Shown one piece after another: positions 1,677 through 61,624 of a stretch of 64,000 nt of DNA. How positions within the stretch are numbered: the first letter of the stretch is position 1; each line of letters begins with the position of its first letter. The stretch comes from Squalus acanthias (taxonomy: Eukaryota). Location of the stretch: positions 94,862,001 to 94,926,000 of the forward strand of contig CM059431.1 in NCBI GenBank assembly GCA_030390025.1, read 5' to 3'. The position numbers were made by a program, and so were the translations under genes. Below the pieces are notes generated by a model, which ran no database searches, was not told the origin of the DNA, and saw nothing but the letters and a program-made list of their open reading frames with translations.

Positions 1677-2764
1677 ATTGCCACCTACTCCTTTTTTTCC
1701 TTCCCTATTTTTGCTGAATACATTGTAGCCAGGAATATTTAGTGCCCATTCCTCCCCTTGTTAGAGCCAGGTATTCATTATTACCATTATATCATGATCC
1801 CGATTGGCAACTTGTACCTTAAGCTCACCAACCTTCTTTGCGACACTCTGTGCATTTATCCCATGCACTGCAAACCCACCTTGGTCTGTCTTTTATTTCT
1901 CCTCTGTCTGATCACTCTTTCTGGACTATTATTTATTTGAACGCTGTTTGTCTCTCCCAATCCTCTGTGTACCTTGTATCTCCTCTCTAATGCTTCATCC
2001 TGGTGCTAAATTAGTTTAAACCTTCCCCAACAGCACTAGTTAACCTCCTCGCGAGGACATTGGTCCCAGCCCTGTTGAGGTGCAAACAGTCCGTCTTTTA
2101 CGGGTCCCTCCTGCCCCAGAACTGGTCCCAATGCCCCTGGAATCTGAAGTCCTCCCTCCTGCACGATTTCTCCAGCCACGCATTAACCTGATTTGTCTTG
2201 CTGTTCTGTACTCACAAGTGTGGAGTAATCCAACTACTTTTGAGGTCCTATTTTTTAGCTTCCTCCCTAGTTGCTGAATCTCTGTCTGTAAGACAAAAAC
2301 TCTTTTCTTTCCTGTGTCATTTGATCGAATATGGACCACGACTTCTGGCTGTTCCATTTCCTCTGTTCAGTGATGTCCTTTACCCAGGTATCAGGGAGGG
2401 AACACACTATACGGGACTCACATTGGCGGTTGCAGAAACACCTGTCTATCCCCCCCTGACTATTGGATCCCCTATAACAGCTGCATTTCTACACTCAGCT
2501 GTGACCCCTGTGCAGTCATTTGCCCCATGATGCTGTGGATGTGCTCTGGACTGTACTCGTTTGAGGTGTTGTCACCCATAAGTACTGAAGGATCGGGTTG
2601 ATCAAAGATACTGTTCAAGCCCTGGAAAGGGATAATGTGCTTGAGGGTTCAAAGCGTTGTGAATGCCACACTTCCGGAGGATTCCTGCAATGCTTGTCTC
2701 TTCTTCCTACTCTGTCCTCTTGGACTCTCTGTGATTGTGGGATGGCCACCTCCTGGAATGTCCT

Positions 2765-3222
2765 GTGTACGGTTTTGGTCTCCTTGCCTAAGGAAGGATA
2801 TACTTGCCTTAGAGAGAGTACAACGAAGGTTCACTAGACTGATTCGTGGGATGGGGGGATTGTCTGATGAGGAGAGATTGAGCAGCCTAGGCCTATATTC
2901 CCCAGAGTTTAGAAGAATGAGAGGTGATCTCATTGAAACATATAAAATTCTTAAGGGGCTTGACAGGGTAGATGCAGGGAGGATGTTTCCCCTGGCTGGG
3001 GAGTCTAGAACCAGGGCTCACAGTCTCAGAATAAGTGGTCGGCCATTTAGGACTGATATGAGGAGAAATTTCTTCACTCTGAGGGTGGTGAATGTTTGGA
3101 ATTCTCTACCCCAGAGGGCTGTGGAGGCTCAGTCGTTGTGTATATTCAAGACAGAGATCGATAGATTTTTGAATATTAAGGGAATCAAGGGCTATGAGGA
3201 TAGTGCAGGAAAGTGTATAGAA
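2765..3222 (+). mobile_element. CR1 LINE 3' fragment
   Basis: LERVQRRFTRLI...RRMRGDLIETYKIL...NFFTLRVVNVWNSLP. Confidence 0.9.
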
Positions 3223-3224
3223 GC

Positions 3225-4832
3225 ATAGAAGATAGTAGCAGGAGTAGGCCATTCGGCCCCTCGAGCCTGCTCCGCCATTTAATGAGATCATGGCTGATCA
3301 TCCAAATTCAGTACCCTATCCCTGCTTTCTCCCCATATCCCTTGATCCCTTTAGCCAAAAGAAATATATCTATCTCCTTCTTGAATATATTTAATGAATT
3401 GGCCTCAACTGCCTTCTGTGGTAGAGAATTCCACAGGTTCACCACTCTCTGGGTGAAGAAATTCCTCCTCATCTCAGTCCTAAATGGCTTACCCCTTATC
3501 CTTAGACTGTGACCTCTGGTTCTGGACTCCCCCCATCTTCCTGCATCTAGTCTGTCTAGTCCTGTTAGAATTTTATAAGTTTCAATGAGATCCCCTCTCA
3601 TTCTTCTAAACTCTAGCGAATATAAGCCTAATCGACCCAATCTCTCTTCATACGTCATTCCTGCCATCCCAGGTATCAGTCTGGTAAATCTTCGCTGCAC
3701 TCCCTCCATGGCAAGAACATCCTTCCTCAGATAAGGCGACCAAAACTGCACACAATACTCAAGGTGTGGTCTCACCAAGGCCTTGTACAACTGCAGCAAG
3801 ACATCCTTGCTCCTGTACTCGAATCCTCTTGCTATGAAGGCCAACATACCATTTGCCTTCTTAACCGCCTGCTGCACCTGCATGCTTACCTTCAGCGACT
3901 GGTGCACAAGGACTCCCAGATCTCGTTGCACTTCTCCTTTTCCCAATCTATTGCCATTCAGATAATAATCTGTCTTCCTGTTTTTGCCACCGAAGTGGAT
4001 AACCTCGCATTTATCCACATTATACTGCATCTGCCCAATCACCCAACCTGTCCAAATCATACTGGAGTTTCTCTGCATCCTCCTCACAGCACACACGCCC
4101 ACCCAGCTTTGTGTCGTCTGCAAACTTGGAGATATTACATCTAGTTCCCTCGTCTAGATCATTAATATATATTGTGAATAGCTGGGGTCCTAGCACCGAT
4201 CCCTGCGGTACCCCACTAGTCACTGCCTGCCACTCGGAAAAAGACCCGTTTATTCCAACTCTTTGCTTCCTGTCTGCCAACCAGTTCTCTATCCAAATCA
4301 GTACCTTACCCCCAATCCCATGTGCTTTAACTTTGCACGCTAATCTCTTATGTGGGTCCTTATCGAAAGCCTTCTGAAAGTCCAAATACACCACATCCAC
4401 TGTTTCTCCCTTATCTATTCTACCAGTTACATCCTCCAAAAATTCCAGTAGATTAGTCAGGCATGATTTCCCTTTTGTAAATCCATGTTGACTTTGTCCG
4501 ATCCTGTCACTGTTTTCCAAGTGCTCTGCTATTACATCTTTTATAATGGACTCTAGCATTTTCCCCACTACCGATGTCAGGCTTATCGGTCTATAATTTC
4601 TCTACCACCTTTTTAAAATAGTGGGGTTACATTAGCTACCCTCCAATCCATGGGAACTGTTCCAGAGTCTATAGAATTTTGAAAGATGACCAGCAATGCA
4701 TCTACTATTTCTAGGGCCACTTCCTTAAGTACCCTAGGATGTAGATTATCAGGCCCTGGGGATTTATCGGCCTTCAATCCCGTCAATTTCCCCAACACCA
4801 TTTCCCTACAAATACTGATTTCATTCAATTCC
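3225..4832 (-). mobile_element. CR1 LINE: RT, C-terminal domain and 3' UTR (frameshifted)
   Basis: [23 protein letters not shown] and FADDTK motifs in ORFs 4020-4568 and 3308-4123. Confidence 0.95.
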
Positions 4833-5065
4833 TGAGGTAGAAGATCAGCCATGATCTTACTGAATGATGGAGCAGGCTCAAAGGGCCGAATGGCCTACTC
4901 CTGCTCCTATTTCTTAAGTTCTTATGTTCTTATGTGCGATCCAAGAATCTTTCAGCCTCCCATATGCCCTGCAGTGACTCCAGCCAATCCTCAAATTCGA
5001 AAGCCTGAGCTCGAGCTCGAGCAGCCGAAGGCACTTCCTGCACACACGGTAGTTCAGGACACTTT

Positions 5066-5460
5066 GGGTGCTAAATTCGGTTGATTTGCGCCTCCCGTTA
5101 GCACCCTAAGAGGGCGGGACGCTATGTCCACCGGGGTCAGGGGGGCCTACCTGCAGCTGGGGCAGTGCAAATTAAAGGGGAGGTGGCGGGCGGCCATTTT
5201 TGTCTTGGCTGCCCGCCAGCACCTGCCCCCGTTGTTGTCCCCGGCCCCTGTGAAGCCCCCCGCGGGGTGCCGGCACTCCCGATCTCTGGTGGCCCAGCTG
5301 AGCGCTGGGACGCGCTGCGCCAGGCCCCTCCCCTTTAATAAGGGGAGGAAGGTCTGCAGTACCATGGCGCGACGTGCCGCAGCGCATGTTATTGGCTTGC
5401 AGAGCCCCAAGAGGGACGCGGGGCACTACCTGGGAAAATCGGCCGTGTCCTGGAATTTCC
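5066..5460. mobile_element. Harbinger-derived non-autonomous fragment
   Basis: GGGTGCTAAATTCGGTTG...GCGCCTCCCGTTAGC start resembles 26862 and 52755. Confidence 0.6.
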
Positions 5461-5519
5461 ACATAGCACAGGATATGCAGGAAAGTGGGAATTTAGAGCT
5501 TGAAATAAATTTGAATCAT

Positions 5520-6398
5520 TGAAATTCCAGTATGATTTGGACAGGTTGGGTGATTGGGCAGATGCATGGCAAATGCAGTATAATGTGGATAAATGCGAGG
5601 TTATCCACTTCGGTGGCAAAAACAGGAAGACAGATTATTATCTGAATGGCAATAGATTGGGAAAAGGGGAAGTGCAACGAGACCGGGGTGTCCTTGTGCA
5701 CCAGTCGCTGAAGGTAAGCATGTAGGTGCAGCAGGCGGTTAAGAAGGCAAATGGTATGTTGGCCTTCATAGCGAGAGGATTCGAGTATAGGAGCAAGGAT
5801 GTCTTGCTGCAGTTGTACAGGGCCTTGGTGAGACCACACCTTGAGTATTGTATGCAGTTTTGGTCACCTTATCTGAGGAAGGATGTTCTTGCCATGGAGA
5901 GAGTGCAGCGAAGATTCACCAGACTGATACCTGGGATGGCAGGGATGACATATGAGGAGAGATTGGGTCGATTAGGCTTATATTCGCTGGAGTTCAGAAG
6001 AATGAGAGGGGATCTCATTGAAACTTATAAAATTCTAACAGGGCTAGACAGAGTAGATGCAGGAAGGATGTCCCCGATGGCGGGGGAGTCCAGAACCAGG
6101 GGTCACAGTCTAAGGATATGGGGTAAGCCATTTCAGACTGAGATGAGGAGGAATTTCTTCACCCAGAGAGTGGTGAACCTGTGGAATTCTCTACCACAGA
6201 AGGCAGTTGAGGCCAATTCATTAAATATATTCAAGAAGGAGTTAGATATATTTCTTAAGGCTAAAGGGATCAAGGGATATGGGGAGAAAGCAGGGACAGG
6301 GTACTGAATTTGGATGATCAGCCATGATCTCATTAAATGGCGGAACAGGCTCGAGGGGCCGAATGGCCTAATCCTGCTCCTATCTTCTATGTTTTCTA
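5520..6398 (+). mobile_element. CR1 LINE 3' portion with 3' UTR
   Basis: ORF 5726-6307; closely similar to 3225-4070 in the opposite orientation. Confidence 0.95.
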
Positions 6399-6924
6399 TC
6401 AGACAATTTGTATTAAGTAACTTTGAATTAAGAGCAGCAGGATATATTAAAATGTGTCTGCCCATACCACTAGCACAGACTCAATTTTTGAGGTGATGTT
6501 CTCATCTGCGGCAGCTTACTGTAATGTCCTGCACCAGGGGAGAGGGAGGGCCTCACAAAATTGGAGCCAAGATGTAACTAGGTCTTAAAAAAGACCCTCA
6601 TGACTCATGATTGTAGCTGAGCTCCAATCACAGCTCACTACAAATCCAAAGTTGTACTTGTTTCTAGTTTGATTTTTTACTCTTTCTCTCCACGCCAATA
6701 AATTCCATCAGAAAAAAGCAACTTTGTTTTGCTCATGGCTCTGGAATGTTGGCAAGGCACACATTACTTGCATTAGTATCGTGCAGAAGAATGCTGCTCT
6801 TTATGTGAAATAAAACAGGCAGCTGCACAGACCAAGGTTTTTTCACTATTTGGAAACCGTCTTTTGATGTTCTCCATTGAAAATGTATTAATTGAATTTC
6901 TGAATAAGTTTTACATTTTTTTAA

Positions 6925-7165
6925 ATTTACTCTATCCTGTCAATTCCTTTAAAAATCCTAAAAACCCCAATCAAATCACCACTTAACCTTCTATATTCCA
7001 GGGAATACAAGCCTAGTTTACATAATCTCTGCATAATCTTGAAGCCCTGGTAACATTTTGGTGTATCCTGCTTGCATTCCTTCCAAGGCAAATATATCCT
7101 TTCTAAGGTGTGGTGCCCAGATCTGTACACAGTACTCCAGATGTGGTCTAACTAGGGCTTTGTTT
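6925..7165 (-). mobile_element. Decayed CR1 fragment
   Basis: LGLYSLEYRRLSGDLI.VF. Confidence 0.8.
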
Positions 7166-7194
7166 GGTTCAGCAAAAATGCCTCCCCTTTATTT

Positions 7195-7715
7195 TTTTAA
7201 ATTCATTCATGGGATGTGGGCGGCACTGGCAAGGCCAGCATTTATTGCCCAACCCTAATTGCCCTTGAGAAGGTGGTGGTGAGCCGCCTTCTTGAACCGC
7301 TGCAGTCCAAGTGGTGAAGGTACTCCCATAGTGCTGTTAGGAAGGGAGTTCCAGGATTTAGACCCAACAACTATGAAGGATCGCCGATATATTTCCAAGT
7401 CAGGATGGTGTGTGACTTGGAGGGGAACGTGGAGCTGGTGGTGTTCCAATGCGCCTGCTGCTCTCATCCTTCTAGGTGGTAGAGGTCGCGGGTTTAGGAG
7501 GTGCTGTTGATTAAGCCTTGGCGAGTTGCTGCAGTGCATTTTGTAGATGGTACACACTGCAACCACATTGCACTGGTGGTGGAGGGAATGAATGTTTAAG
7601 GTGGTGGATGGGGTGCCGATCAAGCAGGCTGCTTTGTCTTAGATGGTGTCGAAAATCTTGAGTGTTGTTGGAGCTGCACTCATCCAGGCAAGTGGAGCGT
7701 ATTCCATTACATTCC
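7195..7715 (-). mobile_element. 3' end of a second LINE family (CR1/L2 group)
   Basis: Matches 19020-19522 (YKMHCSNSPRL...SWNSLP) with tail GGGCAATAAATGCTGGCCTTGCC plus poly-A. Confidence 0.85.
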
Positions 7716-7727
7716 TTGTATTTGGTC

Positions 7728-8972
7728 ATCAGAACATAGGAACAGGAGTAGGCCATTGAGCCCCTCGAGCCTGTTCCGCTATTCAATGAGATCATGGCTG
7801 ATCTGCGACCTAACTCCATACACCCACCTTTGACCCATATCCCTTAATATCTTTAGTGAACAAAAAGCTATCAATTTAAAATCAACAATTGATCTAGCAT
7901 CAATTGCCGTTTGCGGAAAACAGTTCCAAACTTCTACCACCCTTTGTGTGTAGAAGTGTTTCCTAATTTCACTCCTGAAAGGTCTGGCTCTAATTTCTAG
8001 AAAACGCCCCCTGTCCTAGAATCCCCAACCAGCAGAAATAATTTCTCTCTATCTACCCTATCTATTCCCTTAATATCTTGAAAACTTCGATCAGATCGCC
8101 CCTTAACCTTATAATTCTAGGAAATACAACCCTAATTTGTGTAGAGTCTCCTTGTCAAATTTGTTGTCTTAAAATACTCCTGTGCAGCGCTTTGGGACGT
8201 TTTACTAAGTTAAAGGCACTATATAAATACAAGTTGTTGTTTTAACTTAACCCTTGAAGTCCGGGTATCATTCTGGTAAACCTACGCTGCACTCCCTCCC
8301 AACCCAATATATCCTTCCTAAGGTGTGGTGCCCAGAACTGCTCACAGTACTCCTGGTCTAACCAGGGTATTGTATAGCTGCAGCATAACTTCTACCCCCT
8401 TGTAGTCTAGTCCTCTAGATAGAAAGGCCAGCATTCCATTCGTCTTTTTAATTATTTTCTGTATCTGTTCATGACATTTTAATGATCTACGTACCTGGAC
8501 CCCCCAAGTCTTTTTGACCTCCACTGTTTTAGCTTTTCACCATTTAGAAAGTACCCTGTTCTATCCTTTTTAGGTCCAAAGTGGATGGCCTCACATTTGC
8601 CTACATTGAAATCCATTTCCCACAGTTTTGCCCATTCACTTAATCTATCAATATCCCCTTGTAATTTTATGCTTTCATCTACACTGCCCACAAAGCCGCC
8701 TATCTTTGTGTCATCGGCATATTTGGATATATGACTTTCTATGCCATCATCTAAGTTGTTAATAAATACTGTGAATAGCTGAGGCCCCAACACAGATCCC
8801 TGCAGGACACCACTGGACACAGATCCCTGCAGGACACCTCCTGCCAATTTGAGTGCCTACCCATTATCCCTACTGCCTGTCTCCCACCGCTCAGACTCTT
8901 TCTGAACCATGTCAATAATTTGCCCTCAATTCCGTGGGCTTCCACCCTAGTTAGCAGCCTCTTATGTGGTAC
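7728..8972 (-). mobile_element. CR1 LINE 3' half, with an L2/SINE-type tail inserted at ~8155-8242
   Basis: [16 protein letters not shown]; 3' UTR at 7728-7810. Confidence 0.85.
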
Positions 8973-46349: not shown

Positions 46350-46578
46350 GATGTCTTACTGCAATTATACAGGGCCCTGGTGAGACCACACCTGGAGTAT
46401 TGTGTAGAGTTTTGGTCTTCTTATCTAAGGAAGGATATACTTGCCATAGAGAAAGTGCAACGAAGGTTCACCAGACTGGTTCCTGGGATGGGGGGATTGT
46501 CCTATGAGGAGAGATTGAGTAGACTCAGCCTAAATTCTCTAGAGTTTAGAAGAATGAAAGGTGATCTCATTGAAACAT
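46350..46578 (+). mobile_element. CR1 fragment (5' part of the element that continues at 59240-59599, minus)
   Basis: [13 protein letters not shown]...GDLIET, ending at GAAACAT. Confidence 0.9.
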
Positions 46579-47705
46579 TGTAAAGTTTCGCAATTATCGC
46601 GATTCAAAATAACGAAAGAGAAGCAGATTCGTTTGATCAGTTTATTTAAACGAAATGCTGTCATAATTATAAAGGACACAGAAGCCTGTAAAATGGCCGC
46701 CGCGCATCGTGGCAGAAGCTTCCAGAAATACAGTGGGCAGACAAGATGGCGTCGAATAAACATTTCAGTATAAGATTGGATCATACTCGGTAAACATTGA
46801 TAAAGACAGGATGCAACCTGTTTGCATTTGAAACAATAGCAAAGATATAAGTGCTGGAATCGTTTTCCATGCACAAGTAAGACCATTGTACTGGGCAATC
46901 GAAGGCCCATCCAGACACATCAATACACATATACCCCCATGACTCTACAATGAGAGAGCCATTCACGGGTGATTAAGTCAGTATTCGAGGAGGCCCCAAA
47001 ACCAGTCAGGGAGACTCCTAGCCGGTTCGACAATGGGGAAAACATTAACGGATAGTTGGCCAGTCTCAGGTGCTACCGAAACCCGTTAAAGGAAAGAATC
47101 GCCCCATGCTGGGAGTTTTGTGCGCCAACATTTCACAAAGGACAAACATTAAGATTTGTGCGGGAGATAAGGGGACACAGCATTATAACTATAGAGAACA
47201 AATGTCCATCGGTCTCTTTATTCTCCCGGCTGGTCTCTTATTCGCTTGCCGCTTCATGGACTCGCTTGACTGGTGAGCTTCTGTGCTTTTCTGGACTCTG
47301 TTGACTTTTAGCCGTACTGGTCGGTTATTTCGAATGTTGGGTGGAGCTCAAACGGAACGAGCCACCTCGACAAGGGCAAGTGACCGGGTGCACCATCCCG
47401 AGTGTCGGTAAACGGTGTCTGGACCCGAAGGCCCGAAGAGACAAGACGAAACGAGACGAGAAGAAGAAGAATCCACGTGCCGCCACGGTCAGTAAACCCC
47501 GACCGCGCCCGAAAATATAATAAAAGACTCTTCATTGAAATCTACCAACAACCGGTGTCGGTACTGGAAGACTCTTCTTTGAATTTTACAAACGTGTCCG
47601 AGTTCTGTCGAGTTCTTCATGACAAAAGACGGTCTGGCCTGCTTGTCGCAGCAGCGAAGATAAACAAGTGAGGTACAGAGAACCCTCCAAACACGTGACA
47701 GTCAG
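46579..47705 (+). mobile_element. 5' part of a solo LTR (1127 bp)
   Basis: Starts TGTAA right after ACAT; CpG-rich, non-coding; TATA-like TATAAC near 47184. Confidence 0.8.
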
Positions 47706-50700
47706 GCGAACACACTAACCACAGGCGAACACACTAACCACAGGCGGACACACTAACCACAGGCGGACACACTAACCAAAGGCAGACACACTAACCACGG
47801 CGGACACACTAACCACAGGCGAACACACTAACCACAGGCAGAGACACTAATCACAGGCGGACACACTAACCACAGGCGGACACACTAACCACAGGCGGAC
47901 ACACTAACCACAGGCAGACACACTAATCACAGGCGGACACACTAACCACAGGCAGACACACTAACCACAGGCAGACACACTAACCACAGGCGAACACACT
48001 AACCACAGGCGGACACACTAACCACAGGCAAACACACTAACCACAGGCAGACACACTAATCACAGGCGGACACACTAACCACAGGCAGACAAACTAATCA
48101 CAGGCAGACACACTAACCGCAGGCGAACACACTAACCACAGGTGGATACACTAACCACAGGTGAACACACTAACCACAGGCGGATACACTAATCACAGGC
48201 GGACACACTAACCACAGGCAGACACACGAACCACAGGCGAACACACTAACAACAGGCAGACAAAATAACCACAGGCAGACACACTAACCACAGGCAGACA
48301 CACTAACCACAGGTGGATACACTAACCACAGGCGAACACACTAATCACAGGCGAACACACTAACCACAGGCGAACACAATAACCACAGGCAAACACACTA
48401 ACCACAGGCAGACACACTAATCACAGGCGAACACACTAACCACAGGCAGACACACTAATCACAGGTGAACACACTAACCACAGGCAGACACACTAACCAC
48501 AGGCGAACACACTAACCACAGGCAGACACACTAACCACAGGCGAACACACTAACCACAGGCGAACACACTAACCACAGGCGAACACACTAACCACAGGCA
48601 GACACACTAACCACAGGCAGACACACTAACCACAGGCGAACACACTAACCACAGGCGAACACACTAACCGCAGGCGAACACACTAACCACAGGCGAACAC
48701 AATAACCACAGGCGAACACACTAACCACAGGCAGACACACTAACCACAGGCAGACACACTAATCACAGGCGAACACACTAACCACAGGCGGACACACTAA
48801 CCACAGGCAGACACACTAACCACAGGCAGACACAGTAACCACAGGCGGACACACTAACCACAGGCAAACACACTAACCACAGGCAGACACACTAATCACA
48901 GGCGGACACACTAATCACAGGCGAACACACTAACCACAGGCAGACACACTAATCACAGGCGAACACACTAACCACAGGCAGACACACTAACCACAGGCAG
49001 ACACACTAATCACAGGCAGACACACTAAACACAGGCAGACACACTAACCACAGGCAGACACACTAACCACAGGCGGACACACTAATCACAGGCGGACACA
49101 CTAACCACAGGCAGACACACTAACCACAGGCAGACACACTAACCACAGGCAGACACACTAACCACAGGCAGACACACTAATCACAGGCAGACACACTAAC
49201 CACAGGCGAACACACTAACCACAGGCGAACACACTAACCACAGGCGAACTCACTAACCACAGGCAGACACACTAACCACAGGCGAACACACTAACCACAG
49301 GCGAACACACTAACCGCAGGCGAACACACTAACCACAGGCGAACACAATAACCACAGGCGAACACACTAACCACAGGCGAACACACTAACCACAGGCAAA
49401 CACACTAACCACAGGCGGACACACTAACCACAGGCAGACACACTAACCACAGGCGAACACACTAACCACAGGCGAACACACTAACCACAGGCGAACACAC
49501 TAACCACAGGCGAACACACTAACCACAGGCAAACACGCTAACCACAGTCAGACACACTAACCACAGGCGGACACACTAACCACAGGCAGACACACTAACC
49601 ACAGGCGAACACACTAACCACAGGAGAACACAATAACCACAGGCGAACATACTAACCACAGGCAGACACACTAACCACAGGCGAACACACTAACCACAGG
49701 AGAACATACTAACCACAGGCAGACACACTAACCACAGGCAGACACACTAACCACAGGCGAACACACTAACCACAGGCGAACACACTAACCACAGGCGAAC
49801 ACACTAACCACAGGCGAACACACTAACCACAGGCAAACACGCTAACCACAGGCAGACACACTAATCACAGGCGAACACACTAACCACAGGCGGATACACT
49901 AATCACAGGCGGACACACTAACCACAGGCGAACACACTAACCACAGGCGAACACACTAACCACAGGCGGACACACTAACCACAGGCAGACACACTAACCA
50001 CAGGCAGACACACTAACCACAGGCGGACACACTAACCACAGGCGAAAACACTAACCACAGGCAGACACACTAACCACAGGCAGACACACTAACCACAGGC
50101 GAAAACACTAACCACAGGCGAACACACTAATCACAGGCGGATACACTAATCACAGGCAGACACATTAACCATAGGCGGACACACTAACCACAGGCGGATA
50201 CACTAATCACAGGCGAACACACTAACCACAGGCAGACACATTAACCACAGGCGAACACACTAACCACAGGCAGACACGTTAACCACAGGCGGACATTTTA
50301 ATCACAGGCAGACACACTAATCACAGGCAGACACACTAACCACAGGCGAACACACTAATCACAGGCAGACACACTAATCACAGGCGGACACACTAATCAC
50401 AGGCGGACACACTAACCACAGGCGGACACACTAACCACAGGCAGATACACTAAACACAGGCAGACATGCTAATCACAGGCGGACACACTAACCACAGGCG
50501 AACACACTAACCACAGGCGGACACACTAACCACAGGCAGACACACTAACCACAGGCAGACACACTAACCACAGGCAGACACACTAGCCACAGGCAGACAC
50601 ACTAACCACAGGCGGACACACTAATCACAGGCGGACACACTAACCACAGGCGAACACACTAACCACAGGCGGACACACTAACCACAGGCGGACACACTAA

Positions 50701-51975
50701 CCACTGGCGGACACACTAACCACAGGTGAACACACTAACCACAGGCGGACAAACTAATCACAGGCGGACACACTAATCACAGGTGGACACACTAACCACA
50801 GGCGGACACACTAACCACAGGCGAACACACTAACCACAGGCGGACACACTAACCACAGGCAGACACACTAACCACAGGCAGACACACTAACCACAGGCAG
50901 ACACACTAACCACAGGCGGACACACTAATCACAGGCGGACACACTAACCACAGGCGAACACACTATTCACAGGCGGACACACTAACCACAGACAGACACA
51001 CTAATCACAGGCGGACACACTAACCACAGGTGGACACACTAACCACAGGCAGACACACTAACCACAGGCAGACACACTAATCACAGGCAGACACACTAAT
51101 CACAGGCAGACATACTAATCACAGGCGAACACACTAACCACAGGCGGATACACTAACCACAGGCAGGCACACGAACCACAGGCGAACACACTAACCACAG
51201 GCAGACACACGAATCACCGGCGGACACACTAATCACAGGCGGACACACTAACCACAGGCGGACACGTTAACCACAGGCAGACACACTATTCACAGGCGGA
51301 CACACTAATCACAGGCGGACACACTAACCACAGGCGGACACACTAATCTCAGGCGTACACACTAACCACAGGCGAACATACTAACCACAGGCGGACACAC
51401 TAATCACAGGCAGACACACTAATCACAGGCGGACACACTAATCACAGGCAGACACACTAACCACAGGCGGACACGTTAACCACAGGTAGACACACTAACC
51501 ACAGGCGGACACACTAATCACAGGCGGACACACTAACCACAGGCGGACACACTAATCTCAGGCGGACACACTAACCACAGGCGAACATACTAACCACAGG
51601 CGGACACACTAATCACAGGCAGACACACTAATCACAGTCGGACACACTAATCACAGGCAGACACACTAACCACAGGCGGACACGTTAACCACAGGTAGAC
51701 ACACTAACCACAGGCGGACACACTAATCACAGGCGGACACACTAACCACAGGCGGACACACTAATCTCAGGCGGACACACTAACCACAGGCAGACATACT
51801 AACCATAGGCGGACACACCAATCACAGGCAGACACACTAATCACAGGCGGACACACTAATCACAGGCGGACACACTAACCACAGGCGGACACGTTAACCA
51901 CAGGCAGACGTGTGAACCACAAGCAGAAATGCTAACCACAGGTGGACACACGAACCATAGGTGGACACATGAACC
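47706..51975 (+). repeat. 19-bp satellite (CACACTAACCACAGGCRRA)n, ~4.3 kb
   Basis: Direct periodicity of 19; sharp left edge, degenerate right edge. Confidence 0.97.
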
Positions 51976-53224
51976 GGCAACTCTACTTTTCTATTTTCTG
52001 CCGGGTTGCTCACAACAGTGCACAGTCTGTCATTCCTGAAGACTCCAGGAATAGGAGGGTTGGCAACCTGAATTATACTGAGTTATACTAGGGGTTCCAA
52101 ATTAGCCTCTGGCTCTGGAAATTGACTCAGCAGCCTGTGGATAATGCGTCCCTTATGGCTGAGCTAATCTCTGAAATAAGCAGGCCTATCTTTGGATTAG
52201 TCCTCCACTCTCCTCAGCCCTCTCCCAGAAAATACCTGTTTCATGAAATGCAGATGAAAAATATAGTTTATCTGCTGTACACCACAGAATGGACGCCTGT
52301 ATTACATGACATTAAATGAGGTTAATGTCAAACATGACTCAGAGAGCTTGTTAAGTGATTATATGAATCATACAGACAAGGGAAGTCCCAGTTTTAATCC
52401 AGTTTCTGCTGTCAGCTGGGCAGGAGAGGGGTATTTCATGTGGCCTTGTTGAACCTGGTGTGATGAAGGGAAAATTTCCCACAAAGGATTGTTATACATC
52501 GACTCGTTTGTGGACACTGGTGGAGGTCAGGCTCAGGTTTACTTGCGAATTACCTGCCAAACTACAAAAGCATCAAAAGCAGCAGCTTCAAAAGAGCCAA
52601 AATGTTAAAAACAGGACCTGATGACTGGTCATGTGAAGACAAAGTGATAAATTTTACAAATTTTTGGGGCCTGCTAATCACCATGTCTGCATTCCTAATG
52701 TACACTCCTGTCAACAAAGCTCCACATACGGAGAGAGAATTTGCAAAAGTTAAAGGGGGAGAAATTCGGTTGGTTAGCGCCTCCCGTTAGCACCTGGCAG
52801 GGGCACTAATGGGGCGCTAATGAAGTAGCGGCAGGACGAGGCGAATCCAGCGCCGCACGTCAAATCCAGTCGCCCCATAGCGTCGCCGTGAACAGTTAGC
52901 GCCTGGGGCTTTAGCGCCAGGCAGATCGTGACATCAGTGAGCGTGCAACGCTTACTCAGCACCCAATCTGCCAAATTATTGCCCCCTGCCTTAGCGCCTC
53001 GCCCTGACAACGACAGGAAGAGGAGACGTGAAGCAGGCGGATGGCGGCTCCAGGGGCGCTATTTAAAGGGATCAGTCGCAGCTGTCAGGTTAGTGCTGTC
53101 TCACTGCTTCCTTGTCAGTTTGTGATTGTGCAAAAGTTTAATTCAGTCATTTAAAGGTTCATCAGTATCAGGAGTGTTGTGGCTACTAAAAATTTGTTAC
53201 TTTATTCTGACAAAATTTCAAAGT

Positions 53225-53597
53225 GCGACACTGGCCGTCGACCTCGCCCTCCAGAATCTACTGCAGAAGGAGCGGAGGCAGCGAGAAAGATTGCAAGATG
53301 TGGCCAGAGGGAGTAGGAGGGCCATGAGGGCTCTCAACAGGAGGCTTACCCTCCAAGGGTATTCCGAGAGCACTTCTCCTACCTCCAATTAAGCGAGGAG
53401 CAGTGCATTAGACGGCTCTGCTTCAGCAAGGATGTGGTCACTGAACTCTGCCACCTCCTGCAACCAGACCTCGAGCTTCAGATCAGGGTGACCACGGCTC
53501 TCTCAGTGGCAGTCAAGGTCACCTCAATTTCTTCGCCAGCGGTTCCTTCCAGTCTGCAACCGGAGATATAGCGAACATCTCCCAGTTTGCCATCCAT
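53225..53597 (+). pseudogene. Harbinger transposase, N-terminal fragment
   Basis: YPPRVFREHFSYLQLSEEQCIRRLCFSKDVVTELC...LNFFASGSFQ...ISQFAIH. Confidence 0.88.
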
Positions 53598-55072
53598 CGT
53601 TGGATGGTGGTTGACCCAGCCACGATGGCAGCAGTCAGATCTTGCGTGGCATCAAGCTGAGACTGCATGAGAGCAGTCTGAGAATTGATGGCACCAAGCG
53701 TAGACTGCATTACAGCACTAAGACATTGTGTGGCTTCCGCCTGTTCTGCAATGGAAGCTGCAACATCGCTCATCACACGCGGCATCAGGTCTGGGTCGCC
53801 ACGGTCTCTCTGGGAGTCCACCATCCTTTCCAGACTGGAAATGATGGGCTCCATGGTATGTGCAGAGCTCTGTGCAATGTTGGAGGTGGACTCCTCCACG
53901 CTCCTTACCATTGCCGAGAGGCTCTCAGGCACCCTTGCCATTTCACCTATCATCTCCGTGTGCATGCCCATCACCCTTCTTCTAAAGGACTCCCCATCGA
54001 GGTCCTCATCTGAGTCCTGTGCAGCAGAATCCACGTGCGAACTCGCCCTCTGGGGAGCTGACTCCCGAACTACCCTCTCCCCCTGGCCTTGCTGCAGCCC
54101 GCTCGTCCCCAGTGCATCACCCTGTGCAGATCCCGCTACTATATTAGCCTCTAAATAACGCGTAGTGCCAGTATCTGAGCTGGTGCCTGTGGGTGAGAGA
54201 TGCAGTGATGAGGTGTGTTCTTTCTCCTCCTCTCCCGCCTCGCTCTCTATGGTACCCTCAGGGATGGGCTGCTCAGTTGCTTGCTGATTATCTGAAAACA
54301 TAAAGGCAGAAGGCAGAAGAGTCGGGTTAAGATGAGGGGAGGGGGGCAGGACAGGAGAAATGCATGCATACAGCATGATTAGGCTTGTGGGGTGAGGGGG
54401 AAGTGGGATGTGAGAAGAAGGAGTAGGGATGAACATACCGTTATTGTCCCCAAGGGGGGTCAACGTCGCCGGAGGCCACGGCGCCCACCACCTGGTGCCC
54501 AATGATTTGCAGCACTCTTTCCTCCAGCTCAGAAAGTGGTTGGGTGTCAGGTTGTTCCCCTCCTGTGCGCTCCTGCTCCCTCCTGTTGTGAGCGACCTTG
54601 GCCTGCAAGAGAAAGGAAAGTGTGTGAGCGAGTGTGGAGCAATGTGTTTGGGTGATGTGCTTGCCATAGTTGAATAGCTGTTATTGTGTGCAAGGTGTGA
54701 GATGTGGGTGTGAGTGTTGGTAGGTGGAGATTGTTGGTGGGTGAGTGCTGGGGGTGTGGTGCATTGGGCAGTGTGTGCAGACTGAGGTTCAGATGGTGGT
54801 ATGCAGCATTTGTTGAAGCATTGACTCACCCTGACCACCCGAGTGAGGTCGTTAAATTTCTTCCTGTACTGTGTGTGGGTCCTGGGGACCACAGTGCTGC
54901 CCGAGACATGCTGGGCTGCCTCCCTCCACATGGCGCGGAAGACTTGCGGCGAGGGCCTCCTGCCACTTGTTGGGTAGAGCACTGCCCTCCGTCTCTCCAC
55001 AGCGAAGACCAACACCTCCAAAGCCTGGTCGCAGAATCTGCGAGCTCTCTCCCTGGGCCTTTGATCTGCCAT
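53598..55072 (-). pseudogene. Harbinger Myb/SANT-like gene; exons 55072-54830, 54602-54439, 54291-53598
   Basis: All GT/AG sites present; one extra base in a 6-nt run at 54454-54459 frameshifts exon 2; 3' end deleted. Confidence 0.88.
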
Positions 55073-56446
55073 AATGACACCTCCTTCAGTGGTGCGGTTC
55101 CTTCTCCTTGGCCTTCTGCTGCTTGCTGAGACAGCTGCAGAACCAGCAATGCTGAGAATGAGGTTCTGCAGCATGATTGAACCTCCCCTTTAAGAACTGG
55201 AAAGAGCCTGTGGCGATGATAACTAACGATTCGACTGCACCTGAAATTGTTTAGCGCTTTGAGTGTAACGCCACTGAGCTAGGCCGTTAGTGCTTGATTT
55301 AGCGCTCCCATCCTTTCTTTGAGCGATGACACTGAACTTTGCGTGCAACGAGATTCATTAGCGCCTGGTGCTAAATCTCAAACTTTTCCGAAGTTAGGGC
55401 CCATTCCTGGGAGATAATGAATTTCGCCCCCAAAGAGTTAGGCTGAACGTGCAGCTGAATGCAGTTTGTTACGATTAATATACCAATGTTCCACCACTTG
55501 TATTCCCACCTTCACACCGTCACCTTGTGAGGCCCAAAAGGATCCATCTTTGGCCACCTCTACTTCCTTATCTGCATGCAGTCTATTGGCGACATCATCT
55601 GCAGACATCAGATCAGCTTCCACATGTATACTGAGGACACACATGGTGGAAACTGGGCAGTACAGAGTTAAAATCAAAGCTCTAGACTTACTGTTGGTTT
55701 TCCACCGTGCTGCCATCTTCCTGCCGCTGGTTTAATAGGCAGCTGAGGTACCTGCTTGACTCAGGCAGGAGCCTCCTGAATACATTTAAATCAGAGTCTA
55801 TTTTTACGGCCTACTTGTCAGATCGACCGCCGTGGACACTCCACTCATTAGAGCCTGTCAGCCAAGAAGTGGAGGCCCTCAAAGGACAGTGAAAAAATTA
55901 TTTTTGAGGGGCCTTGAGGAGTAGGCTGTCCTGAATCCGGTGGGCTGCATCAAGAAGCCCATTTATGATGGGCAGCTTGTCGGTTCTATTTAAATGAGGC
56001 CTGGCCCTCAAAATGGTTGGGCCTTTTGTTGCACTTCTTGACAAGAGCTAATCAGAGTAAGGCACATTCTGGGCTAAGGAAGTCACTGCTTACTTGGATA
56101 ATTATAGCAAAATGAACTTTAACTTTGAGTTTGTGACAGCTGAATTAGTAATGTGTATTTTTTGGCACTTTGTTTATTTTTGGAGGGTTCTGCCCCAAAT
56201 CTTTGCCAGAAATAATTATGACTGTTACAATCAACATTCTAGAAATTAGGAAGAATTGTCCTCTTTGGGGCAGAGTTATAGACATTTATGCTGCAGAAGG
56301 AGGCCGTTTTGCCCATCGTGTCTGCGCCGGTTGAACAAGAGCTATCCAGCCTAAACACACTTTCCAGCTCTTGGTCCGTAGCCCTGCAGGCCCGGCACCT
56401 CAAGTGCACATCCAGGCACCTTTTGAATGTGATGAGTGTTTCTGCC

Positions 56447-56787
56447 AGTGCTTCATTGTCCAAGGTGCTGTCTTTCAGATGAGATGCTAAATAGAGGCTC
56501 CACCTGCTCTCTTATGTGGACATAAAAGATTTCACAGCTGCATTCGAAAAAGAGCAGGCAAGTTCTCTCAATGTCCTGGCCAACACGTGTCGCTCAACCA
56601 ACACTACAAAAAACAGATTATCTGGTCATTTGTCTCATTGCTGTGTGTGGGACTTTACTGTGCGCAAATTGGTTGCCACCTTTGCCTGCATTATAACAGC
56701 TACACACTTCAGAAGTACGTCATTGGCTATGAAGCACTTGGAGTACGTGAAAGGCATTACACAAATTAAAGTTCTTTCTTGCATCTT
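56447..56787 (+). mobile_element. Deu-domain SINE (duplicate of 37515-37855)
   Basis: Same Deu-domain motifs; a further decayed piece at ~57500-57630. Confidence 0.75.
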
Positions 56788-57689
56788 TCCACATTGTGAA
56801 ATGAGATCATCACATGGGCTCAATTCTGAGAATAAGTGATTACCTTCTACAGTTTCATCACTACCAATTGCAGCATAAAAGCTACACGCTGCACTTGATT
56901 AGAGTTACAAAATCCATTTGTGCACTTAAAACATAATCGGTAGATAGCAAGAGCAATATTATCATGGGAGGATGGGTTGTAACAAGGGATGCTTTGTCTT
57001 GTATCTATTCATTTTCATATTTAATAATGCTTTTGCTAATGTTAACTGTCAGTAGGACACTGTCTACACTGTTCTGATAACTGGTCCTGACTGAAGCAAC
57101 ACAAAGGTAGGATAGGGATTTAGCACAAAAACATTGGGAAAAGACTCATATTTCACAGCAGCACACCATATTTTGCAAGTGGAAAGAAAAGTTGCTGAGC
57201 AGCAAATCCAAGCCATAAACTATCCTGGCAAAACATTCCAGACTGCATTTTATGCTCCTTATTAAAAAGCTTTTGTTTGCCTTCTTTTCATAGCCCCTTC
57301 TCCAAGAGGCCAGCTGTTTCCGATACTAGGTGCTTTTATGGTGGAGTGGGTTTTCTGCCCATCCCTCGGTATTCACCCAACCTCCAACACATTTTCCTGG
57401 GATGAGGTTCATTCTGTATACATGATGGGCTTCCAGCAGGATTCTCACCCCGAAAAGGGAGCCCATCTGTGCAGGGGCGGAAAATCCTGGCAGTGCCATA
57501 ATGTCCCGGCCAATATTCTTCTCAGTCGAAACAGATTACCTGGACATTCATTTCATGTGCTGTTTGTGAGTACTTGCTTTGTGTAAATTGGCATTTACAT
57601 TTTCTTACAAAACAACGGTGACTACACTTTACTTTACAGCAGCTATACTCTGAATGGAAGTACGCTGGGTGCTGCGGAAGAGCAGATGG

Positions 57690-58345
57690 AGTTGGGTGGA
57701 CAGGTTCACAGGACATTGAATGCAGCACCTCAGGTTGATAAGGCCATAAAAGAAAACTAATGGAATTCTAGCTTTTATCACAAGAGGTATAAAATATAAA
57801 AGCCAAGAGGTAAAGATAAGTCTAAATAAAACCTTAATAAGACCTGTTACAGTATTGTGTGCAGTATTGGGCTCCACACTATAGGAAGATATTGAGGTTT
57901 TAGAGAGAGTACAATGCTGATTTACTTGGGTGCTGCCTATTATGAGGAAATACAAATATGGGGAATAACTTGAACAATTGGTTCTTGTTTTGTTAGAACA
58001 ACACAGATTATGGAGAGATATGATAGAAATGTTTAAAATTCTGATGATGGACAAGGTAGATAGAAGCAGATTGTTTCCAGTAGTTGAGGGGTCAACAACA
58101 AGAGGCCATAGACACAAGAATAAATGTAAGATATTTAGAACAGAGGGCAGAAGAAACTTCTTTACACAGAGAGTTGAGGCTGTGGAATTCACATCCAGAG
58201 TTAATGGTTGTAAACATTCAAGATTAGATTGGATGGGTGGGTGAAGGGATATGAGAACAGTGATGAGTGCCTATTTGCTTGTGTGGAGAGTAAATGCCGA
58301 CATGGACTGGTTGGACCGAATGGGCTGTTTCTGTGTATTTCTATA
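57690..58345 (+). mobile_element. Old CR1 3' fragment
   Basis: RLWRDMIEMFKIL...TRGH...RNFFTQRV. Confidence 0.8.
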
Positions 58346-58426
58346 TACAGTTTCCACCACTTACATCATCCCCGTTTATCCAGGACAAATATCGGACAAA
58401 TAGCATTGACCATTTCCCACTACACT

Positions 58427-59235
58427 GGGTGTAAATTACAAAGGCCCCGCTGAACCCGCCGGGTGGGCCGACTCATGTCAGGCAGCTCAAGCAGCTGTTT
58501 GAATGTGATTACCTGTCATTAAGTCCTAACCCCAGTGTGAGTCCAAACAAGTGACGTTTCGCAAGCAGTTTTCCCATCCAGTAAACTATTAGCAGCAAGC
58601 ATGCAAGAGTTCTTGAAATACAATTTCATTGCAATGGGAAGTTATTGGGAATAAAACAACTTGTGTTACCGTTTGGTCCAGATTCGGGGACACCTTCCAC
58701 CTGCCCCGTCACAGTCCAAACGACTTTTAAACGGTCCAGGGCTTTAATCTCAGCAAAGTTAACAGATTCATCAGTGTATTGACTGCGGGCACAAGGGCCG
58801 TTAACACTGTTGGAATATCCGGATTTTCCGGGGCCTATGATTGTGTACACGGTGTGTACGCGGCCGTAAGTGTCCCGCAAGTTCCAGGTTTCCACGTGCG
58901 ATGCACATCTTCTTGACAGATCATCCACATCCCGGAGAAATGGACATTCGCTGGCGGAGGATTTGCCCAACTACTGCCCAGCGAATGCCCATGAAACTCT
59001 TACACCTGGTAAATTTTTTAAAATCATTTTAACATTCAAAAACCTGTAAAATAAGTTTGTGTTATTTTTGGCCCTTTGAAAAATGTAAACATTTATTTTT
59101 CAAAAAATTAAATTTTTCTTTTAAATGTATATTGTATTTTAATTAATTTTAAACATGTAATGATTTTTTTTATTTCAGTGTTGTTAAAATGTATTTTTTG
59201 GGTAATTCCTATTAAGCTTATGGGGATTCCGTACG
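58427..59235. mobile_element. Probable DNA-transposon (Harbinger-like) fragment
   Basis: Starts GGGTGTAAATT; CpG-rich subterminal region followed by an AT-rich interior; second TIR not found. Confidence 0.4.
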
Positions 59236-59239
59236 TAAC

Positions 59240-59599
59240 TAAGAACATAAGAAATAGGAGCAGGAGTAGGCCATTTGGCCCATCGAGCCTGATCTGCCAT
59301 TCAATAAGATCATGGCTGATCTTCTACCTCATCTCCACTTTCCTGCACTATCCCCATATCCCTTGATTCCCTTAATATCCAAAAATCTATCAATCTCTGT
59401 CTTGAATATACTCAACTGTCCTCTGGGGTAGAGAATTCCAAAGATTCACCACCCTCTGAGTGAAGAAATTTCTCCTCATCTCAGTCCTAAATGGCCGACC
59501 CCTTATTCCAAGACTTTGGCCCCTGGTTCTAGACTCCCCAGCCAGAGGAAACATCTTCTCTGCATCTACCCTGACAAGCCCTGTAAGAATTTTGTATGT
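59240..59599 (-). mobile_element. CR1 3' end (continuation of 46350-46578)
   Basis: Reverse complement begins ACATACAAAATTCTTACAGGG, the exact CR1 continuation after GAAACAT. Confidence 0.9.
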
Positions 59600-60096
59600 T
59601 GTAAGGGGTTTTGTCGTGCTTGTATCACAGACGGTGCTGGTGCGAGGTTAGGCCTTCGTTGCCTAATACTATTGCTTGCTCTGATCTCCGGCCAGCCTTA
59701 TTGCAATAAGCACCTGTGAGTGGTTCGACCCACTCGCCCTTACAGTTCTAACACTGGACTTAGGTGCAGGAGCAGTAATGCAGAGAAAAACTCAAATAGA
59801 CCCGATTGAATAGTACGAAATGGAAATCTTTATTGCATAGCGTCCAAAATCATGAAGTACATGTCATAGGCGCAAATTAACGAGAGTACAAGTATACATA
59901 CATTCATAAAGCTTGGTCTATGGTAATGAAGAACGCACGGCACATCGTAAAAAGGGGAACACATTATACTTTATCCTTAATAAAAACACCCTCCCTTATC
60001 AATACCTACACTACGTCTAGATTTGTAGGATCGAGAAACATGCTCACCACTCGTGATACTTCGGAGAATTTTAAAGTGAGGCACTCGGCTCGTTCG
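59600..60096 (-). mobile_element. 3' part of the solo LTR (497 bp), inverted
   Basis: Minus strand ends CCCCTTACA followed by ACAT; minus-strand AATAAA at 59829-59834. Confidence 0.8.
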
Positions 60097-60900
60097 CTGT
60101 GATTAGTGTGTCCTCCTGTGATTAGTGTGTTCGCCTGTGGTTAGTGTGTTCGCCTGTGGTTAGTGTGTCTGCCTGTGGTTAGTGTGTCCACCTGTGGTTA
60201 GTGTGTCCGCCTGTGATTAGTGTGTCTGCCTGTGGTTAGTGTGTCTGCCTGTGGTTAGTGTGTTCGCCTGTGGTTAGTGTGTCCGCCTGTGGTTAGTGTG
60301 TCTGCCTGTGGTTAGTGTGTCTGCCTGTGGTTAGTGTGTTCGCCTGTGGTTAGTGTGTCCGCCTGTGATTAGTGTGTTCGCCTGTGGTTAGTGTGTTCGC
60401 CTGCAGTTAGTGTGTCCGCCTGTGATTAGTGTGTCCACCTGTGGTTAGTGTGTCTGCCTGTGGTTAGTGTGTCTGCCTGTGGTTATTGTGTTCGCCTGTG
60501 GTTAGTGTGTCCGCCTGTGATTACTGTGTCCGCCTGTGATTAGTGTGTTCGCCTGTGGTTAGTGTGTTCGCCTGTGGTTAGTGCGTCTGCCTGTGGTTAT
60601 TGTGTCTGCCTGTTGTTAGTGTGTCTGACTGTGGTTAGTGTGTCCGCCTGTGGTTAGTGCATCTGCCTGTGGTTATTGTGTCTGCCTGTGGTTAGTTTGT
60701 CCGCCTGTGGTTAGTGTGTCTGCCTGTGGTTATTGTGTCTGCCTGTTGTTAGTGTGTCCGCCTGTGGTTAGTGTGTCCGCCTGTGATTAGCGTCACCACC
60801 TGTGGTTTGCATGTCCACCTATGGTTTGCCGTTTCACGTGTCTGCCTGTAATATGTGTGTCTGCCTGTGGTTCACGCATTCACCTGTGGTTCGCGTGTTT
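60097..60900 (-). repeat. 19-bp satellite in reverse orientation
   Basis: (CCTGTGGTTAGTGTGTYYG)n; sharp left edge, degenerate right edge. Confidence 0.97.
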
Positions 60901-60952
60901 GCGCCCAGCCGATATTAGCGCCCCAAATTGGGCGATACCGAATTTCTCCCCC
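60898..60952. mobile_element. Isolated Harbinger terminus
   Basis: GCCGATATTAGCGCCCCAAATTGGGCGATACCGAATTTCTCCCCC, compare 27939-27983 and 27700-27747. Confidence 0.85.
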
Positions 60953-61624
60953 ATTATTTCCTGTTAAATTAAGGATTGCCGATAGATTCAATTATTTTGA
61001 GGAGATGTTGTAAGTAGAAGATATATCTTGGATTGTTCTTACTGAGAAAATACTGCAGTTGAAATATTCACTGTTTGGGTGGTTTGTAGCTTTAATTCTA
61101 ATTAGTTGCTCTTTAAGTGCTGCATGAGCATTTTGTGATTAGTGGATTGTTCTTTGTAGTTAAAATAAACTTTATGCAACAGTATCTGATGAGCCTGTGG
61201 CAACCACTTTGATTCTGTATTTAATGTAACCCGATTTGCAGGTCTGAATAGAATCTGGAGAGGGAAATAACATCAGGAGGAAGCAGGGGATAGGGATGGG
61301 TTGAGGCTGGGACCACAATCTTGGAGGGATTAGGCGATGGAGCCTGAGAAGGAGTAAGTGGAGGCTGGGGGTCAGGAGCTGGGAGGGAGTGGACAACCTG
61401 GGAGTAGGGCTGGCAGAGATGCCTGAATCGTGGGAGCATTTTGAAAGCAGGAAAGTCTGAGGAGCCAGAACAGGACATCAGCTGGAAGGAAAAGCAAAAG
61501 CTTTCATTTTGCTCTTATTTTTCATATTTGTGTGATGTTTATTAAAAGTAGTTCTCTGGGCTTTGAGTGTATCATACCCTATTGACAAGGGTAAGTCATT
61601 GATTAGGAGGTAGGAGGTATGAGC

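Follow-up and report, generated by a model that had tools for sequence, protein, structure and literature searches.

Inversion of a 12.4-kb segment and the repeats that it splits

How did one half of a solo long terminal repeat (LTR) come to be joined directly to an array of 19-bp satellite units in the genome of Squalus acanthias, while its other half is joined, some 12.4 kb further on, to a second array of the same satellite in the opposite orientation? The locus lies within a window of 64,000 nucleotides, by which we mean the whole stretch of DNA analysed (assembly GCA_030390025.1, contig CM059431.1, positions 94,862,001 to 94,926,000; coordinates below are positions in the window). The window was taken from a 3.7-Gb assembly, and the repeat copies used for comparison, labelled L0xx, are other loci in that same assembly. 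Comparison with these copies shows that the segment 47706-60096 is inverted relative to the ancestral order (Table 1). Flipping it heals four split repeats at once, namely a 5'-truncated long interspersed nuclear element (LINE), the solo LTR, the 19-bp array, and the older repeat that hosts the array. The flipped DNA is a repeat-rich, gene-poor stretch with its breaks in one solo LTR and one satellite that is private to the locus. The inversion is balanced and has both of its reciprocal joints; after the flip all four repeats are complete except for a loss of 3 nt from the LTR. The window contains no N (gap letters).

An original prediction, made from the letters of this stretch alone, had listed the same elements and proposed that flipping 47706-60096 would restore the LINE, the LTR and the array. 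Every listed element was found at or within 2 nt of its predicted place, and the restoration is borne out by intact copies that are collinear elsewhere in the genome (11/11 for the LINE, 11/11 for the LTR). The flip was judged by comparing the LINE and LTR halves with these natural intact copies.

The first of the four repeats is the LINE, into which the LTR had inserted. Its left part ends GAAACAT at 46578, and ACAAAATTCTTACAGGG is the reading of the minus strand that starts at 59595. All 11 of the other LINE copies (L012-L022) are continuous over the insertion point, reading ...AACATACAAAA..., and their unoccupied site, ...GAAACATACAAAATTC..., contains one ACAT as against the two in the window. 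Longer copies of this repeat carry an RVT_1 frame directly upstream on the same strand (three of the four frames tested, E 3.8e-30 to 8.6e-15), from which it follows that the repeat in the window is a 5'-truncated LINE. The name CR1 is a label of the original prediction; here the element is assigned to LINE by RVT_1 only.

The LTR begins TGTAA and ends TTACA, has the target-site duplication ACAT on both sides (46575-46578, and 59596-59599 on the minus strand), and belongs to a family with a full-length member, L051 (G000:C9:29967000-29976900), in which two LTRs surround 5.9 kb of internal sequence (1897-7755); these features identify the element in the window as a solo LTR. Target duplications of 4 nt also flank six of the seven other LTR copies checked, and the family has at least 2,759 first-look candidates in the assembly. 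The two LTR halves that are separated in the window are neighbours on a single strand in all nine other copies compared (L002-L010) and in both LTRs of L051, and none of these 11 has a 19-mer array between the halves or elsewhere inside it. Other LTR copies were the check that the original prediction had itself suggested, and the outcome, with halves joined in 11/11 and a native 19-mer array in 0/11, went its way. The left part aligned over its full length to seven of the nine other copies at 88.5-93.5% identity, L006 and L009 being continuous only from query position 83. Against L051, it aligned full length to the 5' LTR and in two pieces to the 3' LTR, with about 350 nt extra between them.

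Searches of the open frames inside L051 (647, 294, 545 and 327 aa) gave no Pfam match for any of the four, and no reverse transcriptase, protease or integrase was seen among them; the element may be non-autonomous or undescribed. The family was also looked at in contigs from runs of reads, of which X1-X4 and X5 are two samples of one organism (word share 0.62-0.66) and X19-X21 are two other organisms (about 0.25). In runs X19 and X20 cover of the right part of the LTR at 59756-60073 was either absent or of much smaller depth than in the organism of the window, and the adjacent LINE was equally abundant. The bin 59968-60073 had a depth of 0 in both X19 and X20, a hole in contig cover that is at most a weak hint. 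The LTR family may be lineage-specific.

Table 1. Features of the inverted locus, in window coordinates.
Feature	Position	Strand	Description
Inverted segment	47706..60096 (12,391 bp)	n/a	Flip heals four split repeats; cut points arbitrary within the microhomologies
LINE, left part, 5'-truncated	46350..46578	+	95-96% identity to other copies; closes with the 4 nt of target-site duplication copy 1 (ACAT, 46575-46578)
LINE, right part	59240..59599	-	In the same 11 copies its match follows on immediately from that of the left part; includes target-site duplication copy 2 (ACAT, 59596-59599)
Solo LTR, left 1.13 kb	46579..47708	+	Starts TGTAA; last 6 nt common with satellite; family homology stops at 47708
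Solo LTR, right 0.5 kb	59600..60099	-	Ends TTACA; first 3 nt (CAG) common with satellite; 96-98% to 9/9 copies and both L051 LTRs
Joint 1	47703..47708	+	6-bp microhomology CAGGCG, native to LTR (GTCAGGCGCTG) and to satellite unit (CACAGGCGAAC)
Joint 2	60097..60099	-	3-bp microhomology CAG, inside imperfect satellite/LTR match CAG(G)CGAAC
Satellite block A	47703..51969	+	224.6 units of 19 bp (Tandem Repeats Finder), read CAGGCGGACACACTAACCA; larger part of ancestral array, now inverted
Satellite block B	60097..60890	+	38.4 units to 60826 (Tandem Repeats Finder), read CTGTGGTTAGTGTGTCCGC, then degenerate units; stayed in place
Host repeat, 5' part	51970..52106	-	Ends ...AAATAGAAAAGTAGAGTT, then first degenerate satellite units; 70-83% to L025, L026, L028, L029, L031
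Host repeat, 3' part	60986..61110	+	82-88% to L024-L032
Passenger frame	53519..55189	-	556 aa, Myb/SANT-like domain PF13873, E 2.9e-6; high-copy repeat

Structure of the two joints

At the site of the break, intact LTRs read GTCAGGCG-CTG-CAGCGAAC, and the wider context in intact copies across the break is GTGACAGTCAGGCG-CTG-CAGCGAACGAGCC. When every shared base of the microhomologies is credited to the LTR, the gap that remains between 47708 and 60099 in both LTRs of L051 is exactly 3 nt, CTG; hence at least CTG was lost, and the flip does not restore the LTR to the base. The net change to the LTR at the inversion is a loss of 3-12 nt. The original prediction had called the event "reconstructable to the base" and had given a junction string for intact LTRs; both of these claims failed, as intact LTRs hold GCGCTGCAG between its two cut points, and the LTR in the window is without the CTG of the 11 of 11 intact LTRs aligned. 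The string was short by 9 letters relative to intact copies: the two flanking motifs with a spacer of 0-8 nt, the predicted short form, occurred at 0 places genome-wide. The same motifs with the spacer searched at 9-12 nt occurred at 158 places, and among the matches listed the spacer was exactly 9 nt in all 100, reading GCGCTGCAG in 88 of them.

Joint 1 reads GACAGT-CAGGCG-AACACAC, with LTR matches from other copies ending at 47708 and satellite matches beginning at 47702-47705, and a 101-nt stretch spanning it has a full-length match only once in the assembly. Joint 2, read on the minus strand, is ACTAATCA-CAG-CGAACGAG; past the CAG, the satellite continues GCGAAC versus CGAAC in the LTR, a difference of one extra G. 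The short sharing of CAG at 47703-47705 with CTG at 60097-60099, noted in the original prediction, is present in the sequence. Among 400,000 random LTR-by-satellite break pairs, the chance of a microhomology of at least 6 bp was 0.0017 and of at least 3 bp 0.056, and we judge the microhomology of the joints, 6 bp at joint 1 and 3 bp at joint 2, to be beyond chance. Neither inserted or templated letters nor duplicated stretches were seen at either joint. Cleavage of a RAG-like or recombination-signal kind at the satellite's CACAG was considered and rejected: neither joint links heptamer to heptamer, and about 12 nt separate the break in the LTR from its nearest CAC.

The presence of CAG at both joints brings to mind staggered cuts with fill-in, in which offset nicks leave overhangs that are filled, so that a few bases (here three) appear at both joints. 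This was the speculative alternative of the original prediction, and the model is established for Drosophila inversions, in the part of the published account drawn on here (PMC1885836). It predicts an inverted duplication of each broken site, however, and the LTR instead shows a net loss of CTG. CAGGCG and CAG are both native to the intact LTR in nine of nine copies, which leaves no duplication to explain, and the up to 3 nt that could be duplicated on the satellite side are equally well explained as LTR-native bases. Staggered cuts are not needed to account for joints that show loss and not duplication, and we regard them as very unlikely.

A satellite private to the locus, and the repeat in which it arose

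The satellite is private to this locus. A di-unit allowing at most three mismatches had 202 matches in the window and 202 (173 + 29) in the 3.7-Gb assembly, every place among the matches listed being in the window, and of 100 shuffles none gave any match. With a satellite private to one locus, blocks A and B must share one origin. The two blocks are in opposite orientation and 88-90% complementary wherever they were aligned, minor unit variants such as ACAATAACC are present in both, and among the 20-unit windows of A the junction-proximal one is the most similar to B's first 20 units, 0 of 203 being closer. Taken with the copy counts and the microhomology simulation, the satellite shuffles serve as controls: what is observed at this locus is not due to chance.

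A parse of the units found degenerate ones only at the outer ends of the arrays, in about four units at the end of A (51900-51975) and in B from about 60800 to 60900, as had been predicted; the units beside both joints are 1-2 letters off consensus. Across the joint, the reverse complement of 47706-47724 followed by 60097-60115 is exactly in phase, because both joints use the same satellite motif. The original prediction had described a single 19-bp array in perfect phase, and this is right at the joint itself, but one unit of 18 nt at 47782 in block A means that the array is not in register throughout. Since both joints lie on the same satellite motif, any whole number of 19-nt units could have been lost invisibly, and the phase is no evidence for the "no loss on the satellite side" of the original prediction.

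The outer end of block A also has structure of its own. Locally, at 51236-51900, the units are organised in a higher-order repeat with a period of 11 units (209 bp), in which the string of unit types recurs. The rare variant ACACGTTAACC stands every 209 bp in block A, ending at 51273, 51482, 51691 and 51900.

The fourth split repeat is the older one that surrounds the array. Its 3' part, the B-side flank, was found at nine other loci (L024-L032), and five of the nine (L025, L026, L028, L029 and L031) also have the 5' part, or A-side flank. In all five the two flanks are collinear, the A-side flank lying 400-520 bp upstream on the same strand, and in none are they inverted; in the window they point towards one another, and become collinear once the segment is flipped. 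The A-side flank in these five copies ends ...GAAAATAG(G/A)(G/A)AA(G/A)T..AGTT, and after it come two or three proto-units, such as GGTTCACATGTCGCGCCTGTGGTTTGCGCTCGCCTGTGG in L026, at the position of the exact start of the array in the window, which indicates that the satellite grew from a motif inside the host repeat. A fragment of a further, very common repeat, 55-70 nt long, separates block B from the host repeat's 3' part at 60898-60967, and has many genome matches that are 90-98% identical. Some 350 bp that other copies of the host repeat have at this place are missing from the copy in the window.

The inverted arrays that now stand at 47703-51969 and 60097-60826, with their 88-90% complementarity, are what one would look for if the segment had been turned by non-allelic homologous recombination between long inverted repeats, either between inverted arrays that existed beforehand or by way of an LTR that natively carried the array. 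Those inverted arrays are the product of the event and not its substrate, as the breaks part LTR from LTR and array from array; the array is in 0 of 11 other LTRs, and the satellite occurs only at this locus. The LTR and the satellite have only 6-9 nt in common, and ancestral breakpoints that share so little exclude recombination between long inverted repeats, to which we give next to no chance. The view that this is a reciprocal inversion joined at short microhomology and not a long-repeat exchange, which was the core of the original prediction, is upheld by the 11 of 11 LTR copies without the array and by the private satellite.

Proposed mechanism and its alternatives

In our view the best explanation, with a probability of roughly 0.7, is that two double-strand breaks were followed by rejoining of the ends through microhomology-mediated end joining. 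The ancestral order would have begun with the left part of the LINE, the complete solo LTR flanked by ACAT, and the right part of the LINE. It would then have continued through about 7.3 kb of repeat debris to the 5' part of the host repeat, a single array, and the 3' part of the host repeat. That array, with its origin in a motif of the host repeat, would have counted at least 262 units of 19 bp. The comparisons show the inversion with its polarity, the microhomologies and the 3-nt loss; we infer that the lesions were double-strand breaks, and the pathway that repaired them is likewise a matter of interpretation. Some 12.4 kb would have separated the two breaks, of which one would have struck the LTR, on the CTG of GTCAGGCG-CTG-CAGCGAAC or next to it, and the other would have fallen within the array, with the piece between them rejoined in reverse.

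A break at this position would leave one LTR end finishing in CAGGCG and the other starting CAGCGAAC. After resection, the left LTR end would have annealed via its CAGGCG to a CAGGCG of the array, and the right LTR end via CAG(CGAAC) to CAG(GCGAAC) of the array, wherever the array had broken, since any break in it would have CAGGCGAAC within 19 nt on either side. Trimming of the flaps would then have removed CTG from the LTR, and from the array either nothing or, invisibly, a whole number of units. The array offers every 19 bp a motif that the LTR carries twice, and this accounts for both the microhomology and the "perfect phase". End joining at the CTG site of the LTR would give overlaps of 6 nt and 3 nt, an LTR without its CTG, a phase that is exact, and no duplication. 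The features of end joining that the locus displays are its reciprocal joints, short microhomology, and a small flap deletion without inserts. Dependence on the alternative end-joining machinery, polymerase theta and its partners, would be a further, putative feature of this pathway.

Microhomology at both joints is also what replication-based template switching would leave, whether by fork stalling and template switching (FoSTeS) or by break-induced replication mediated by microhomology (MMBIR). A stalled or broken fork in the satellite would have been primed on the LTR via CAGGCG, with a second switch back via CAG, and without two free double-strand breaks. Tandem arrays are plausible obstacles to replication forks. 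For inversions whose junctions contain repeats, MMBIR is one of the mechanisms named, in the part of the published survey used here (PMC9675761). The product at this locus is balanced, however, with no duplication, triplication or templated insertion and only the 3-12-nt loss from the LTR, and replicative models usually leave a change in copy number or some complexity at the joint, which is seen at neither joint here. On this balance we think it unlikely that template switching produced the inversion.

A more prosaic possibility is that the segment was misoriented during assembly, and that the real chromosome is uninverted. No read or contig is shown crossing a joint, and each joint borders a tandem array, of 4.3 kb in one case and 0.7 kb in the other, of a kind that assemblers handle poorly. 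An artefact would need two reciprocal mis-joins between LTR and satellite, made through only 6 and 3 shared bases and dropping exactly CTG. Misassemblies are normally formed between long identical repeats, which are absent from the ancestral order, and the window has no N gaps, with joint 1 unique in the assembly. We hold an artefact to be highly improbable.

Several observations weigh against the inversion by end joining as we have set it out. Microhomology by itself cannot separate end joining from replicative template switching. Both junctions come from the assembly alone, as independent reads and contigs gave no verdict on either joint, and the assembly contains no second copy of 51960-52560, such as a second haplotype contig would provide, the only full-length match being the stretch itself. 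The signal of contiguity between the two blocks is weak: 18 of 213 windows were closer when 10 units were compared, and 83 of 186 when 37 units were compared. An array-wide higher-order period, which could have been used as a test of continuity, was not found in the blocks. Finally, eight further loci (L035-L042) have the A-side flank of the host repeat without the B-side flank, and the argument from the host repeat is thus one of five copies.

The comparison with reads covered the side of joint 2, where contigs from runs X1, X5, X19 and X20 were set against 57000-60170 at 90% likeness and were dominated by repeat contigs, at 50,000-97,000 per run; among the pieces listed, none bridged 60096/60097. 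The unique stretches 57000-57800 and 58218-58990 were covered in runs X1 and X5 with 2-4 other letters per piece, and in runs X19 and X20 with 23-25 other letters per 560-690 nt, and in neither pair of runs did this cover inform orientation.

A bolder version of the end-joining account is conceivable, in which the satellite acted as a "microhomology sink". With CAGGCGAAC repeated every 19 bp, and with two partial copies of this motif 3 nt apart in the LTR, the array would have channelled a break in the LTR 12 kb away, and both joints would have been predetermined. The event made a new inverted-repeat pair of 0.73 kb and 4.3 kb, about 89% identical, around 51970-60096, and in the same version homologous recombination between the pair could now turn the inner 8.1 kb over again and again, so that the inversion here would be recurrent and polymorphic in the species. 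We consider this combined proposal doubtful; if it were true, tandem arrays private to one locus would be a systematic trap for broken ends in their vicinity.

Contents of the flipped segment

A single long open frame is present here, the passenger frame at 53519-55189. Its family gave 181,927 first-look candidates in the assembly, of which 78 were scored, and the 77 copies elsewhere are 69-84% identical to it, most of them with stops. The copy in the window is one of the few open members of its repeat family. The flipped segment, to which the gene screen was confined, showed no host gene, and an effect on phenotype is therefore not expected.

Relation to known inversions

Events of this kind are already known, as non-homologous inversions inside repeats with a polarity that can be read from the interrupted repeats. 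The comparisons made here draw on parts of three published accounts. In the first, the human polymorphic inversion HsInv0379 (PMC4591017), which spans 415 kb, shows no microhomology and disrupts a gene, was confirmed by PCR and an outgroup. The inversion in the window is like it in being non-homologous, with breakpoints inside transposable elements and a polarity given by the interrupted elements, and unlike it in its size of 12.4 kb, its microhomologies of 6 bp and 3 bp, its junction of LTR with satellite, the lack of any host gene seen in the segment, and a polarity obtained from one assembly.

The second comparison is with human non-homologous (NHE) repeat-associated rearrangements, which include junctions of the microhomology-mediated end joining and MMBIR types (PMC9675761). 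Shared with these are breakpoints in repeats, short homology at the junctions, and small deletions at inversion joints. As described in the part of that account used here, NHE events have by definition both breakpoints in elements of the same class, and their inversions occur between oppositely oriented elements, whereas the partners in the window, a solo LTR and a private tandem array, are unrelated. Inversions by staggered breaks in the Drosophila melanogaster group (PMC1885836) are similar in that two sites are broken and the ends joined, with no ectopic recombination between repeats. According to the part of that account used here, they leave inverted duplications at the breakpoints, with a median of 321 bp in D. 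yakuba; at this locus, in contrast, there is no duplication and a net loss of at least 3 nt.

What is unusual at this locus is the completeness with which the event is documented from one assembly, and the pairing of a solo LTR with a locus-private satellite. It provides a worked example of a small germline inversion whose polarity, breakpoints, microhomology and loss at the level of bases are read from a single assembly without an outgroup. The approach relies on four split repeats that are independent of one another, and on copies of them that are intact at other genomic sites. The locus also presents a case in which a tandem array that was born in an older repeat, and is private to one locus, took part in a non-homologous rearrangement. 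The product of that rearrangement is a new inverted-repeat pair, which could seed later recurrent inversions.

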